A stretch of 64,000 nt of DNA. Origin: Thermodesulfobacteriota bacterium. GTDB taxonomy: Bacteria > Desulfobacterota_D > UBA1144 > Nemesobacterales > CSP1-2. Shown in pieces: positions 18,430 to 30,746 of the stretch. The notes beneath the pieces are model-generated. The model worked only from the letters and a program-made list of their open reading frames with translations, searched no databases and had not been told where the DNA came from. Each line of letters opens with the position of its first letter. Within the stretch, counting starts at the first letter, position 1. A program made the position numbers and the translations under genes. The DNA lies in the NCBI GenBank assembly GCA_035559815.1, contig DATMAT010000057.1:6359-70358 (forward strand), read 5' to 3'.

Positions 18430-18465
18430 TCCTTATTGCGGAAATTTTTTGAAACTTTTCGTCTA
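18430..18465 (+). promoter_or_regulatory. ECF-type promoter-like motif upstream of the GGDEF gene
   Basis: CTTTTCGTCTA at 18455-18465, which is 38 nt upstream of the ATG at 18503. The RBS AAAAAGGAGGG lies between them. Confidence 0.45.
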
Positions 18466-18502
18466 AGACTGGCTAAAGGATCAAAAAGGAGGGTGATGGG
18501 AG

Positions 18503-19555
18503 ATGAAGACTAAGGTGGTTTCTTCCGTTGTTAAGTCAGTCTCTGGCCCGGATACACAGCCATCTGTGCAGAGTAAAGAGCTGTCGACATACAATAACCC
18601 GGAGATTGAAGAGCTAAAGATAGTCAGAAATAAAGGGTCAGCGGCATACAAATTCCATACTTTAATATCATACATACCCCTGCCCAAGAGCTACCTCGGT
18701 AAAATCACCCTGCTTATATTTCTAGCCGGATATCTCCCCATCCTGGCTTTCGTACTTTATCTTTTAACTTCTCACCCGAACGACCCGGCTTCAAAGCTTC
18801 AGATTTTCGGCATCAGCCTCGCTTTTGCCCTTCTGGGGCTAGCCGTCACCGCTTACCCGCTGAAATTGCTGCTTTCATCGTTATTGGTAGTCTCTCGCGC
18901 CCTCGACCAGTACATAAACGATAAAAAGATTCCGACGTTGTCCACCAGCCAGATCGATGAACTGGAGAGATTAATGCTGGATATTGAATTTAAGATACTC
19001 GACCTCCAGGGGCACATCCGGTCACTCGAAAAAAGGTCTATGACGGACTATCTAACCGGAATCCAAAACCGGTACTCTGCAGAGAGGCAGCTTAAGGAAG
19101 ATATCGCCCGTGCTCAGAGAAGCGGAAAAGAAATCTCATTAATAATCCTGGATATCGACGAATTCAAGCTTATCAACGACCGTTACGGCCACGATGTGGG
19201 GGATATTTGTTTAAAGCATGTAGTCGAGATAATCCAGGGCGGCATACGCAAGGGAGACTGGCTGGGGAGATGGGGAGGAGATGAATTCGTATTATTACTC
19301 TTCGATTCTGATGAAAAATCCTCGAGAAAAATAGTGGAGCGCATTGGTGACGCGGTGAAGGAGCAACCGGCCTTGACACCCAAGGGCGAGATAAGCATGA
19401 GCCTGAGCGTGGGCATATGCCAGCACAATGGAAAAGACCAAGCGGAGGAGCTTTTCAAGAAGGCCGATTGTGCCCTTTTATTGGCGAAGCGATTAGGAAA
19501 GTCGCAAATAGTCTATTACTCCAATACCCTCCCTATCTCAGCTACACATACTTAG
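18503..19555 (+). CDS. Membrane-anchored diguanylate cyclase (GGDEF domain)
   Basis: Two TM helices are followed by a coiled coil and then GRWGGDEFVLLL, the GG(D/E)EF active site. An I-site-like RxxD lies upstream of it. Confidence 0.85.
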   Translation: MKTKVVSSVVKSVSGPDTQPSVQSKELSTYNNPEIEELKIVRNKGSAAYKFHTLISYIPLPKSYLGKITLLIFLAGYLPILAFVLYLLTSHPNDPASKLQIFGISLAFALLGLAVTAYPLKLLLSSLLVVSRALDQYINDKKIPTLSTSQIDELERLMLDIEFKILDLQGHIRSLEKRSMTDYLTGIQNRYSAERQLKEDIARAQRSGKEISLIILDIDEFKLINDRYGHDVGDICLKHVVEIIQGGIRKGDWLGRWGGDEFVLLLFDSDEKSSRKIVERIGDAVKEQPALTPKGEISMSLSVGICQHNGKDQAEELFKKADCALLLAKRLGKSQIVYYSNTLPISATHT

Positions 19556-19804
19556 CTCCTAACGGTTATTATTAGCGACGCAAATGTTTACGAGAGGACT
19601 TTTCTTGAACCCTTCTTAATAATGTAATAAAATGAGCTATCGAAAAAGGATGGAGGTCGTGATATTCAGCCTAAATTATCGTCAGCCCTCCGCGGCTACG
19701 GACACCTGCCCGAACGTAATTTTCTTTACCGAAGGTTTTACCAGTTTAACCAATATCGAAGAACACCGTATTTCTGCTTTCCTCTAAAAACCTAGGAGAC
19801 AGAA

Positions 19805-22123
19805 GTGGCAAATAAAATTGCTGGAATCAGAGAGAGACCTTTAAAATTAATCTTTATCTCACTTCTTTTAACCTCCTGCACCAGCGCTTTTTTAGTATTT
19901 CTCCTATCCGGCGGGCCTGGCGGACTGCCCATTGTTCCGGCGTTCATAGTTCCCGGAGCAAGGCAACTGGTGGCAACATCCAGCCACCCGCTTGTCCGAT
20001 TCTTCTCCGAGCCCCAGGTCGCTGCAGTGACGCCCGATAACTCCAAGGTTTACGTCACCAACCTAAGAAGCGACTCGGTATCGGTGATAGATACAGCAAA
20101 GGATAGAATAACGGCAACGATACCGGTTGGTAGAAATCCTTTCTCATTGGCCATAACACCAGACGGGACCAAGGTCTATGTGGCCAATTTCGGAAACCTT
20201 TTCCAGCCGGGAAACACCGTCTCGGTGATAGATGCTGAAACGGACGCCGTCGTCGCCACGGTTAGAGTGGGGATTAACCCGGGAGCAATAGCCATAACCC
20301 CGGACGGCTCTAAAGCCTATGTGGCAAACTCCGGATTCTCCGCCTCCGATAACACCGTCTCGGTGATAGATGTGGCCACAGACCAGGTTATCGCCACGGT
20401 AATTGTGGGAATTAATCCCGGGGCGTTAGCAATAACCCCGAATGGCTCAAGAGTCTACGTAAGCAACACCATCAGCAGCACCGTCTCGGTGATCGATACT
20501 TCAACCGACGAGGTAATGGATACGATAAACGTCGGGTTTAACCCAGCGGGGATAGCTATTACTCCCGACGGTTCCAAGGTCTATGTGGCCAACAATCTAA
20601 GCGATTCCGTGTCGGTGATAGACACGTCCAGCAACCGGGTTATCACCACCATTCCAGCAGGGACAGAGCCCTTGATTGTAGCAATAACACCCGACGGCTC
20701 GAAGGCTTACATCACCAGCTTAAGTAGCGACTCGGTCTCGGTGATAGATGTATCAAACGACGCCGTTGTCAACACAATTCCGGTCGGCAATATTCCGGTG
20801 TCCATAGGGATAACGGCGGATAGCTCTAAAGCCTATGTAGGAAACTGTAATTGCGGCATAGCCGACCCGGACAGTCCGGACACCGTATCGGTAATAAACG
20901 TATCGATGGATGAGGTTATTGCCACGATTCCGGTCGGATTTGGGCCGCTCGGCCTGGCCATAACATCAGACGGCTCCAAGGTGTACGTGCCCAGCTCCAA
21001 CGGCAGCACCGTATTTGTGGTCGACACAACTACAGACGAGGTTATTTCGGTAATACCGTCGGGGACAGGACCGGCGGCCATAGCGATAACGCCCGACGGC
21101 ACCAAGGTCTACGTGAGCAACTTTAATAACCCGGACAGTCCAGGCAATACCATATCAGTAATAAATACCGAAACAAACACAGTCGTTGATGAAGTCGAAG
21201 TAGGCATTGGGCCTGCTGCGCTGGCCATAACCCCGGATGGTTCAAAACTGCTGGTTGCTAATTACGGGAGTATATCCGAGCCTGGAAATACCATATCGGT
21301 GATAGAGATTGAGACGAACACGCTGATTGCCGACTTAACTGTCGGAACCGGCCCGATGGCTATTGCCATAAGCCCCGACGGCTCTAAAGCCTATGTGGCT
21401 AATTTTGGCAGTAGCAATTCAGTCGGCAATACCGTGTCGGTGATCGACCTTACTAGCAATACCGTTACACAAAGCATCGGTGTCGGTAATGGGCCTGCCG
21501 GAATAGCCATAACGCCCGACGGCTCACAGGTTTATGTCACCAACCTGGGCGGCGTCGAGGATCCTCCCGATTCCAGCGCTAGAAGCACGGTATCGGTAAT
21601 AGATACCGCAACTAATTCAGTAATCGCTGAGATACCGGTAGGAATTGGTCCCCTGGGCATAGCCATAACCCCGGACGGAACCAGGGCTTATGTGGCCAAC
21701 TTCGGCGGCATTACTTCTTTTAGCGACTTCGCCGCTGGAAATAAGGTGTCGGTCATAGATGTAATAAATAACATATTGATCGGTGAAGTGAACCTCGGAG
21801 ATGGTTTTCTAGGTCTTGGGCCGGCCGGCGTAGCCATAACCCCGGACGGATCTACCATATACGTAACCAACTTCGACATTGTTAATGAGGAGCTATTGGG
21901 CTCGGTCAAGGTTTCTACCCCCGGGGATACTATATCGGTGATAGATTCGACAAGTAACACGGTTACCGAAACTATCAACGTCGGAGAGAGGCCGCTGGGG
22001 ATAGCGATTACCCATGATGGAACTAAGGCTTATGTGGCTAACTACTTCGGCAATAGCGTTTCGGTGATAGATGTTTCGACCAATAGTGTGGCCGAGGAGA
22101 TACCAATTAAAAATGAAAAATGA
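19805..22123 (+). CDS. YVTN-family beta-propeller repeat protein (about 17 repeats), N-terminal signal anchor
   Basis: The unit [V/A]YVAN..S.[T/S]VSVID..T..V..TI.VG..P.GIAITPDGSKAYVAN is repeated about 17 times, each about 40 aa. Length is 772 aa. Confidence 0.85.
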   Translation: MANKIAGIRERPLKLIFISLLLTSCTSAFLVFLLSGGPGGLPIVPAFIVPGARQLVATSSHPLVRFFSEPQVAAVTPDNSKVYVTNLRSDSVSVIDTAKDRITATIPVGRNPFSLAITPDGTKVYVANFGNLFQPGNTVSVIDAETDAVVATVRVGINPGAIAITPDGSKAYVANSGFSASDNTVSVIDVATDQVIATVIVGINPGALAITPNGSRVYVSNTISSTVSVIDTSTDEVMDTINVGFNPAGIAITPDGSKVYVANNLSDSVSVIDTSSNRVITTIPAGTEPLIVAITPDGSKAYITSLSSDSVSVIDVSNDAVVNTIPVGNIPVSIGITADSSKAYVGNCNCGIADPDSPDTVSVINVSMDEVIATIPVGFGPLGLAITSDGSKVYVPSSNGSTVFVVDTTTDEVISVIPSGTGPAAIAITPDGTKVYVSNFNNPDSPGNTISVINTETNTVVDEVEVGIGPAALAITPDGSKLLVANYGSISEPGNTISVIEIETNTLIADLTVGTGPMAIAISPDGSKAYVANFGSSNSVGNTVSVIDLTSNTVTQSIGVGNGPAGIAITPDGSQVYVTNLGGVEDPPDSSARSTVSVIDTATNSVIAEIPVGIGPLGIAITPDGTRAYVANFGGITSFSDFAAGNKVSVIDVINNILIGEVNLGDGFLGLGPAGVAITPDGSTIYVTNFDIVNEELLGSVKVSTPGDTISVIDSTSNTVTETINVGERPLGIAITHDGTKAYVANYFGNSVSVIDVSTNSVAEEIPIKNEK

Positions 22124-30344: not shown

Positions 30345-30439
30345 ATTCAAGTAGCGATTATGTTTCATCCCTCTACTCAATATTTTCATCAGAAGACAGG
30401 ATTAGTTCTAAGAATGAAGCACCCCGCGGCAAGCCGCAG

Positions 30440-30690
30440 TGTATCAATACATACGCATGTACTCTAACGCGACATTGCGAGAGTTGCGATGCAATATGTT
30501 TAGATTCCTCACGTTTGTTCGGAATGACAAAAGCGGTTTTGCAGTCTCGGAAACGCAAATAGGGTTCTGTCATTTCGAAGGGAGAAATCTTAGTTTTTGG
30601 GAAACCTTTTGTCACATTGCTTCGTCGCGGAGTCTATCCTGAGGAAATCGAAGGACTCCTCGCAATCAGCGGAAACTCTGTGGCAAGCCA
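30440..30690. repeat. Cluster of MITE-like palindromic repeats (GTCATT...AATGAC family)
   Basis: agattcctcacgtttgttcggaatgac (30502-30528) and gtcatttcgaagggagaaatcttag (30570-30594) are terminal-inverted-repeat halves. The 30610-30680 segment is homologous to 18170-18250. Confidence 0.6.
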
Positions 30691-30720
30691 CAGCGAATTC
30701 TCAAGTTAAATTCATCAGAG

Positions 30721-30746
30721 GGAAATATCCATGAACTTTTCGTCTA
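30721..30746 (+). promoter_or_regulatory. Orphan ECF-type promoter-like motif inside a gene desert
   Basis: GGAAATatccatgaaCTTTTCGTCTAgtac. There is no ORF within about 700 nt downstream. It is a candidate driver of a non-coding transcript. Confidence 0.35.

Follow-up and report, generated by a model that had tools for sequence, protein, structure and literature searches.

The 64,000-nt stretch of contig DATMAT010000057.1 from a Thermodesulfobacteriota bacterium (assembly GCA_035559815.1), hereafter the window, carries five copies of a bipartite motif (sites P1–P5, Table 1) that we consider, with good confidence, to be promoters of the extracytoplasmic function (ECF, group 4) type, most likely read by a 263-residue sigma factor whose gene lies between the third and the fourth of them. 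An initial annotation of this stretch, made by a model from the letters alone, had proposed ECF promoters served by the neighbouring sigma, and that proposal is supported by a sigma factor matching TIGR02937, by an anti-sigma protein with a CHCC zinc motif, by the conserved positions of the motif and by a geometry and a -10 element (GTC/TCTAA) that agree with sigma-E-type promoters of Escherichia coli (PMC1312014, PMC6648896).

The repeated motif and its architecture

The exact 11-mer CTTTTCGTCTA occurs five times in the window, always on the plus strand, against an expectation of 0.04 copies in dinucleotide-preserving shuffles, none of which (0 of 100) contained more than one match; when two mismatches were allowed, the extra matches stayed at background level. 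A GGAA is found 15–16 nt before CGTC at every copy, and no further GGAA-N15-16-CGTCTA exists on either strand of the window. Once the five sites are aligned on CGTC without gaps, this upstream element becomes a -35 core, GG[G/A]AA, which occupies positions -20 to -16 and starts at -20 relative to the C of CGTC in all of them. Alignment of 150 nt around each copy confines the identity to the motif itself (approximately 27 nt), and blastn of the flanking intergenic regions revealed no repeat covering it. A generic scan for sigma-70 promoters and terminators showed no enrichment in the region 17600-31600.

These results bear out the number and strand of the 11-mers given in the initial annotation and amend several of its details. 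One of its coordinates, 24427, is the end of a copy that starts at 24417. The GGAA that it placed upstream of the motif is present at all copies, but the distance of 13–14 nt that it gave does not vary: the apparent variation arises because GGAAA and GGGAA both contain GGAA, and a variable spacing was rejected on the fixed register seen in an ungapped alignment of 28 sites. The copy at 18455, thought to have TGAAAC in place of GGAA, has GGAAAT at 18440, and its TGAAAC corresponds to the conserved AAC element of the spacer. In the order of the sites, the nearest start codon downstream is 38, 140, 48, 102 and 727 nt beyond the last A of CGTCTA, so that the range of 40–100 nt described before suits three sites (38, 48 and 102) and not the other two.

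The alignment on CGTC comprised 28 non-redundant sites, selected by the core TTCGTCTA, 23 of which come from other genomes. In the upstream block, G is found at -20 in 25 of the 28 sites and at -19 in 23, position -18 is G or A, and A occupies -17 and -16 in 27 sites each. About eight weakly constrained positions follow (at most 0.9 bit each), and the downstream block then begins with A at -7 (23/28), A at -6 (21/28) and C at -5 (24/28), continues with T at -4 (26/28) and at -3, and ends with A at +6 (25/28). The resulting consensus is GGRAA-N8-AAC-TTTT-CGTCTAA, that is, GGRAA-N8-AACTTTTCGTCTAA with AACTTTTCGTCTAA at -7 to +6: two conserved blocks and a spacer that is constant in length and free in sequence, as in ECF promoters. 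A position weight matrix (PWM) built from the 23 sites of other genomes gave the five window sites 23.3–33.4 bits, while the next best position in the window reached 8.8 bits (128 kb, both strands) and the maximum in shuffled sequence was 17.8.

Promoters of the sigma-W type of Bacillus subtilis follow the pattern TGAAAC-N16-CGTA. In E. coli sigma-E promoters, GGAACTT and TCAAA are separated by 15–19 nt, with 16 preferred (PMC1312014), and the GTC of the -10 element is recognised by sigma-E (PMC6648896). The motif described here resembles these promoters in being bipartite, with a -35 element that contains GGAA, a -10 element, CGTCTAA, that contains GTC and a spacer within the same range. It differs from them in its -35 element, since GGRAA lacks the C of AAC and is only a partial match to GGAAC/AAC; in its spacing, which is constant and at the lower limit of that range (15 nt by the sigma-E definition of PMC1312014); and in its -10 element, extended by a nearly invariant AAC-TTTT. 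The transcription start sites (TSS) listed in Table 1 are predictions that assume, by analogy with sigma-E, a discriminator of 5–6 nt after TCTAA.

Conservation across loci and metagenomes

Nine non-redundant loci were compared, namely the window and L001, L003, L005, L006, L007, L008, L011 and L013, and the sigma proteins of the other eight are only 54–64% identical to that of the window. The gene order beta-propeller, TPR-CHAT, anti-sigma and convergent sigma is kept in all nine. The motif precedes the anti-sigma gene, on the gene-sense strand, in nine of nine loci, which agrees with what had been annotated for the window, and in an alignment of the nine anti-sigma upstream regions its columns are the sole invariant ones. 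It also stands before the beta-propeller gene (before GGDEF, if that gene comes first) in all eight loci with sequence at that point; before the TPR-CHAT gene where an NHL gene intervenes after the propeller (window, L011/L004 and L014); and before the gene divergent from sigma in eight loci (L008 was not decided). The site orthologous to P1 is found upstream of GGDEF in L011, L016 and L034. Four of the five window sites are in this way upstream of genes, co-oriented with them and at orthologous positions, as is typical of ECF promoters, and the fifth is the one 727 nt from the next gene. Neither the flanks nor the spacer of the motif are conserved between loci, its distance to the start codon ranges from about 10 to 190 nt, and in several loci no more than about 10 nt separate the -35 element from the stop codon of the CHAT gene.

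The gene divergent from sigma is not the same everywhere. It encodes a NarL/GerE-type regulator in the window, L004/L011, L020, L035 and L037, an RpoD/RpoS-like sigma of 363–382 residues in L001, L003, L005, L006, L007 and L013, and a sigma-54 activator in L019, and the motif before it is unchanged whichever of these follows. Since this regulator varies while the motif stays, and since all loci share just two regulators, the 263-residue sigma and its anti-sigma, we infer that it is this sigma that reads the motif.

A scan of metagenomes with the strict pattern GGRAA-N8-AACTTTTCGTCTAA (19 positions) yielded 25 matches in 23 stretches. At least 19 of the matches are situated before orthologs of genes of the locus or before genes for other regulators. 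Most precede orthologs of the TPR-CHAT, GGDEF, beta-propeller, RpoD-like sigma or GerE regulator genes, and others precede sigma-54 activators (L024 and L029), a HEAT-like lipoprotein of 300 residues (L022 and L027) and a zf-HC2 protein (L030). Some matches are on contigs that carry no sigma gene. L024 and L027 were assembled from the metagenome that also yielded the contig with the sigma gene of L014/L019, but they are on different contigs, and therefore the regulon probably extends beyond the locus. The match in L036 is intragenic and was rejected as a promoter, being taken as chance, and those in L018, L023, L031 and L033 have no interpretable gene downstream. The first three of these share a perfect copy of the motif, CAGGGAAATTCCCTCAACTTTTCGTCTAA, which is almost the same as the promoter of the beta-propeller gene in L001.

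The sigma factor and its anti-sigma

With TIGR02937, the model for ECF-type members of the sigma-70 family, the 263-residue protein reaches 54.3 bits, above the cut-off of 42.9, and the alignment extends over residues 14–244 for only 151 positions of the model, which implies a family-specific insert of approximately 90 residues between sigma2 and sigma4. At default thresholds, Pfam has no match for the sigma, for the anti-sigma or for the 146-residue protein encoded nearby. Below threshold, the sigma matches Sigma70_r2 with E = 0.011 (15.9 bits, threshold 24) and Sigma70_r4 with E = 0.08 (12.9 bits, threshold 24.1), and the same weak matches to both models are found in 33 of 33 aligned family members, none of which matches Sigma70_r3. 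The domain make-up is sigma2 plus sigma4, without sigma3 or sigma1.1, as defines an ECF sigma, and structural matches likewise assign the protein to the ECF type. The published ECF classification left out ECF-like sigmas whose sigma2 or sigma4 misses its Pfam model (PMC7826278), and the sigma of the window fails both gathering thresholds used there. A search of solved structures with the sigma profile returned only WhiG, FliA, SigL and an unnamed sigma factor (3hug), at the level of sigma4 (E about 0.006).

Among 1.84 billion representative sequences, a profile search places the sigma family in approximately one cluster at 50% identity, with three proteins at E <= 1e-30; beyond that cluster it finds sigmas of 250–300 residues that mostly match the generic TIGR02937 only. 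The homologs that are 54–66% identical come from metagenome-assembled genomes (MAGs) labelled Candidatus Dadabacteria, Thermodesulfobacteriota, Deltaproteobacteria and 'bacterium HR37'. A few of these records probably carry mis-binned labels; the NCBI taxonomy places Dadabacteria as a class within Thermodesulfobacteriota. A protein 100% identical to the anti-sigma of the window is recorded from a Thermodesulfobacteriota MAG. Most of the sigma homologs and all 18 detected anti-sigma homologs are unnamed or called 'hypothetical protein', and a full-text literature search returned no paper on the sigma factors of Dadabacteria.

The 201-residue anti-sigma matches zf-HC2 weakly (E = 0.004), and its residues C25, H50, C54 and C57, which form the CHCC motif (H-x3-C-x2-C), are invariant both in the nine sequences of the compared loci and in a set of 16. 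A hydrophobic helix at about residues 88–108 is followed by a conserved C-terminal domain of approximately 90 residues. Having H-x3-C-x2-C with an upstream ligand, a transmembrane (TM) helix and a sigma gene next to its own, it shows the sequence pattern of a zinc-containing anti-sigma (ZAS) protein, and we take it to be a membrane anti-sigma of the class I zinc type, for which the structural support is moderate; a sequence search of solved structures with its profile gave no match.

The sigma/anti-sigma pair noticed in the initial annotation is thus present, and its two genes are convergent and do not form an operon: the sigma gene faces the anti-sigma gene across a gap of 2 nt (2–34 nt across loci) and is divergent from the GerE gene. 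Positive autoregulation from the sigma's own target promoter is common among ECF sigmas, and not universal. In every locus examined the motif is absent from the sigma-sense strand upstream of the sigma gene, which argues against direct positive autoregulation. In its place, the element TTTTAATy-N13-14-TATTAAAATCT is found 72–193 nt upstream of the sigma ATG in eight of nine loci, in the window back-to-back with the -35 element of P4, and it remains next to the sigma gene both in L013, where an insertion has displaced the ECF motif, and in L008, where that motif is absent. It is probably the sigma gene's own promoter, of the housekeeping type.

Table 1. The motif sites of the window and the genes and elements discussed with them. 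Positions count from the first letter of the window; minus-strand genes are given from start to end.
Feature	Position	Strand	Basis or remarks
CTTTTCGTCTA copies	18455-18465, 24417-24427, 27489-27499, 29136-29146, 30736-30746	+	exact match
P1	18440..18466	+	GGAAA-N15-CGTCTAA; PWM 30.2 bits; predicted TSS ~18472
P2	24402..24428	+	PWM 33.4 bits; predicted TSS ~24434
P3	27474..27500	+	PWM 23.3 bits; predicted TSS ~27506
P4	29121..29147	+	PWM 26.8 bits; predicted TSS ~29153
P5 (orphan, promoter-like)	30721..30747	+	full consensus; PWM 33.1 bits; predicted TSS ~30753
ECF-type sigma, 263 aa, ~90-residue sigma2-sigma4 insert, proposed reader of the motif	28946-28155	-	TIGR02937
Sigma-sense element TTTTAATy-N13-14-TATTAAAATCT	29088..29118	-	conserved in 8/9 loci
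Anti-sigma, 201 aa: CHCC zinc motif, one TM helix, ~90-aa conserved extracytoplasmic domain	27547-28152	+	convergent with sigma
GGDEF diguanylate cyclase, 350 aa, membrane, first gene after P1	18503-19555	+	Pfam GGDEF 1.1e-41; GGDEF and RxxD intact
YVTN/YncE-type beta-propeller predicted lipoprotein, 772 aa, core regulon member	19805-22123	+	syntenic; motif in 8/8 loci
NHL-repeat predicted lipoprotein, 642 aa, accessory	22199-24127	+	orthologs in L004/L011, L014, L016, L034
Small Cys-containing open reading frame, 64 aa, end of GGDEF-propeller-NHL operon	24187-24381	+	called as gene in L009, L011
TPR-CHAT predicted lipoprotein, 941 aa, after P2	24567-27392	+	Pfam CHAT 3.4e-53 and TPR; syntenic in all loci
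NarL/GerE-type regulator, degenerate receiver, after P4	29248-29886	+	GerE 1.3e-15; Response_reg only E = 0.005
Protein of unknown function, 146 aa, after GerE regulator, downstream of P4	29904-30344	+	orthologs of the two-gene pair in L004/L011, L020, L035, L037
Lineage-specific 614-nt segment carrying P5	30589..31202	.	absent from L037 and L011; present in L009/L010

Alternative readings of the motif

Several observations weigh against the view that the motif is an ECF promoter read by the neighbouring sigma. Its -35 core lacks the conserved C of the canonical GGAAC/AAC, and the conserved -10 region (about 15 nt) exceeds the usual length of an ECF -10 element, for which an extra protein or a contact made by the sigma insert may account. 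A sigma gene without the motif is atypical for ECF sigmas, and here sigma and anti-sigma are not co-transcribed. P5 is part of an insertion, with no gene close to it. Furthermore, the step from protease to anti-sigma that is proposed below was drawn from gene neighbourhood, topology and analogy.

The first alternative is that the promoters are of the ECF type and are read by a sigma encoded elsewhere, the neighbouring sigma/anti-sigma pair being one of its targets. Another ECF sigma outside the 64-kb window is possible, since this is the only part of the genome that is visible; the autoregulation signature is missing from the sigma gene, and the metagenome scan found matches on contigs without one. 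Against this, the motif and the 263-residue sigma occur together in every locus, the motif flanks the sigma gene on both sides (with the regulator side of L008 not decided), and its invariance fits the tight conservation of the sigma family. Within the window, tblastn with RpoE of E. coli and SigW of B. subtilis detected no sigma, the 263-residue one having been recognised only from its translated sequence and from TIGR02937, and neither these searches nor a search with the family profile found another sigma-family open reading frame (ORF). We regard this alternative as unlikely.

It has also to be considered that the motif could serve a DNA-binding transcription factor as its operator, be it the GerE/NarL-type regulator at 29248 or some other protein. 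Such a role would suit the length of the AACTTTTCGTCTAA block, unusual for a -10 element, the short palindrome GGGAAnTTCCC that forms the -35 region in about half of the sites, and the constant presence of a regulator gene among the targets. However, in most loci an RpoD-like sigma or a sigma-54 activator takes the place of GerE and the motif does not change; the whole motif shows no dyad symmetry and in all cases points the same way as the gene that follows; and its two blocks, at a fixed spacing with a free 8-nt core, lie about 27–190 nt before start codons. The operator explanation thus seems highly improbable.

Even less can be said for the proposal that the copies are fragments of REP-like (repetitive extragenic palindromic) repeats or of miniature inverted-repeat transposable elements (MITEs) spread by transposition and devoid of promoter function. 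Short REP-like repeats do occur in intergenic regions of the window, and the segment that carries P5 has inverted repeats at its ends and is missing from a relative that is 93% identical. Nevertheless, the five copies share only their 27 nt or so, with different spacers and flanks; the motif lies outside the repeated pieces of the insertion; and for four of the five sites the motif recurs at the orthologous position in genomes with proteins only 54–66% identical, with all copies in the gene sense. The origin from MITEs that the initial annotation named as a possible refutation is in this way contradicted for the set of five, and applies in part to the orphan site, which is inside an insertion bounded by REP-like copies. 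Finally, an element acting in the RNA (in a 5' untranslated region or as the site of an RNA-binding protein) of transcripts started further upstream would be in keeping with the position of the motif shortly before start codons and, in several loci, directly after the stop codon of the preceding gene of the same operon, and is nonetheless the least credible of all, because no Rfam family matches anywhere in the window at gathering thresholds, the spacer varies freely with no compensatory pattern and the distance to the start codon is so variable.

Genes downstream of the sites

The reading of the motif as a set of ECF promoters defines a group of target genes, and their products make the stress or envelope regulon suggested in the initial annotation plausible, because they are lipoproteins and a membrane diguanylate cyclase. 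The TPR-CHAT, beta-propeller and NHL proteins have lipoprotein-type signal peptides that end in a conserved Cys. In the TPR-CHAT protein, the lipobox Cys28 and residues His801, His805 and Cys846 are invariant in eight orthologs, and this protein is the candidate for a protease acting on the anti-sigma, just as the beta-propeller lipoprotein is the candidate sensor. The ORF of 64 codons has no family match; it is identical to its L011 ortholog at 53 of 65 aligned positions (stop codon included), while the surrounding proteins of L011 are only 59–66% identical and its sigma 60%, and its conserved product could act in the module as a small partner protein or as a ligand. The regulator described earlier as LuxR-type is a GerE/NarL-like protein, with a receiver domain that is degenerate.

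The 250-nt gap between the GGDEF and beta-propeller genes contains a sigma-70-like match, TTGAAC-17-TAAAAT, at 19605-19633 (+). The stretch around it is conserved in L011, and in the other loci the 5' region of the propeller gene carries another AT-rich element that is itself conserved. These elements suggest that the propeller operon may have a basal expression besides that from the ECF-type promoter.

The orphan site and its insertion

Downstream of P5 there is no convincing ORF for about 720 nt (only unconvincing ones of 22–46 codons), and the next gene on the plus strand, at 31473, encodes an AMP-binding enzyme. The 614-nt segment in which the site lies is missing from L037, a relative approximately 93% identical in the nucleotide sequence of the flanking genes, and from L011, in which 153 nt separate the 146-codon gene from the AMP-binding gene; the near-identical relatives L009/L010 carry it. 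It is bounded by inverted REP-like copies (GTCATTTCGAA..GAGAAATCTTA) at 30569-30593 and, inverted, at 31180-31210, and two internal pieces of it recur elsewhere in the window (repeats D17 and D20), with the motif outside those pieces. The spacer and flanks of P5 differ from those of P1, and for this reason the idea of its origin by a recent duplication of P1 was rejected. P5 may drive the AMP-binding gene through a leader of 720 nt, may make a short RNA or may be idle.

Other members of the REP-like family (GTCATTyCGAAC..GTGAGrAATCTTA) are scattered between genes, among them those at 30500-30528, 15610-15658 and 17987-18022, and L037 has a single short hairpin at the position of the segment. 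Between the 146-codon gene and the orphan site, L009/L010 contain a further 1.4 kb or so with a Beta_helix/NosD-like gene of 295 codons (L009 7393-8280, minus strand). This stretch is absent from the window (about 30345-30409), and the intergenic region is therefore an indel hotspot.

A possible peptide cluster elsewhere in the window

At 33180-42510, on the minus strand, the window contains at least nine paralogous ORFs with a leader-like N-terminal motif, M-x-K-[IVM]-PGF[TK]AE-x-SLY[KR]T, and divergent C-terminal parts that are often rich in Cys. Two subtilisin-like genes (34119-34925 and 41599-42510), about 75% identical in nucleotide sequence, flank these ORFs, together with one of 331 codons (40062-41057) that, from its position, is probably the counterpart of the PatG_D/PatG_C gene of L009/L010. 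The whole looks like a cluster for ribosomally synthesised and post-translationally modified peptides (RiPPs), or for secreted Cys-rich peptides.

Comparison with known systems and proposed circuit

To our knowledge, TPR-CHAT proteases that gate a sigma factor have been characterised so far only in DdvA and in the type III-E Craspase. DdvA of Myxococcus xanthus unites a CHCC zinc anti-sigma domain, a TM helix and a periplasmic TPR-CHAT in one chain (PMC11506125, PMC6061681), and the release of its sigma, DdvS, has been proposed to occur by autoproteolysis of DdvA followed by cleavage by RseP (PMC11506125). The locus described here shares with DdvS/DdvA an ECF-type sigma and a single-pass anti-sigma with a cytoplasmic CHCC motif, a TPR-CHAT predicted to lie outside the cytoplasmic membrane and, by prediction, several sigma-dependent promoters clustered in one locus. 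It differs in that the anti-sigma has only 201 residues, with a small C-terminal domain, and that the TPR-CHAT is a separate lipoprotein gene of 941 codons, whose active-site His and Cys are conserved, whereas the active site of DdvA is described as incomplete. In addition, and unlike DdvS/DdvA, the sigma is not autoregulated, there are no CBASS (cyclic oligonucleotide-based antiphage signalling) or CRISPR genes, and PADLOC gives no specific match; an assignment as a defence system was dropped, the PADLOC matches being generic TPR and HTH ones. Profile searches of solved structures detected no relation to any solved sigma/anti-sigma pair, including DdvS/DdvA.

In the type III-E Craspase, the TPR-CHAT protease Csx29 cleaves Csx30 and frees CASP-sigma (PMC10028731). 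The likeness consists in a TPR-CHAT protease linked to an ECF-like sigma and an inhibitor, and in sigma-dependent promoters within the locus. No genes for Cas7-11, Csx30 or Csx31 were found in the locus, the NCBIfam scores are far under the cut-offs (18.9 against 100 for CASP-sigma and 33 against 300 for Csx29), and the protease is predicted to be extracytoplasmic, unlike the cytoplasmic, RNA-guided Craspase. As for E. coli sigma-E, the regulon here similarly includes the cognate anti-sigma and envelope proteins, but the sigma lacks autoregulation, its gene runs towards that of the anti-sigma, and the protein has the insert of approximately 90 residues and falls below the Pfam thresholds (PMC7826278).

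In the circuit that we propose, domain 4 of the sigma would read GG(G/A)AA at -20 to -16, domain 2 would read and melt CGTCTAA, with the AAC-TTTT just upstream extending the -10 element, and transcription would start about 5–6 nt after TCTAA. The sigma would be made from its own housekeeping-type promoter and held inactive by the convergently encoded membrane CHCC anti-sigma. Once released, it would transcribe the anti-sigma gene, which gives negative feedback; the operon or operons for the beta-propeller, NHL and TPR-CHAT predicted lipoproteins and, in this genome, the membrane diguanylate cyclase; a second-tier regulator (NarL/GerE here, an RpoD-like sigma or a sigma-54 activator elsewhere); and possibly, from the orphan site, the gene for the AMP-binding enzyme. 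Because the two genes are convergent, with gaps of 2–34 nt, anti-sigma transcripts would run antisense into the sigma gene, and this antisense transcription could add a second negative loop on the sigma.

As to the signal, by analogy with DdvA and with Craspase/Csx30 the TPR-CHAT protein is the likely site-1 protease, which would cut the outer domain of the anti-sigma, and the signal might be co-sensed by the beta-propeller; the freed sigma would then amplify both this sensor/protease module and the anti-sigma. Cleavage in trans is proposed because the TPR-CHAT protein is separate, predicted to be extracytoplasmic and, as far as can be predicted, apparently active. The whole might be seen as a 'split DdvA' device peculiar to Dadabacteria-like Thermodesulfobacteriota, in which a trans-acting protease would free a long-linker sigma that lies outside the Pfam-based ECF classification, launching a second-tier regulator and restrained by its own anti-sigma and by antisense transcription; this is a tentative idea, to which we give a limited chance of being right.

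Significance

Taken as an ECF-type sigma with its promoters and its regulon, the system is a new and well-supported case of a familiar kind and, as a promoter discovery, conventional; the gene arrangement is uncommon, and the TPR-CHAT link is topical but unproven. A simple and portable set of sigma, anti-sigma and promoter, accompanied by a candidate protease that acts in trans, might find use as an orthogonal switch for gene expression. For the biology of this uncultivated lineage, the analysis provides its sigma family with a defined promoter model (GGRAA-N8-AACTTTTCGTCTAA) and a core regulon, and this regulon ties an ECF-type switch to a free TPR-CHAT protease that is predicted to be extracytoplasmic.

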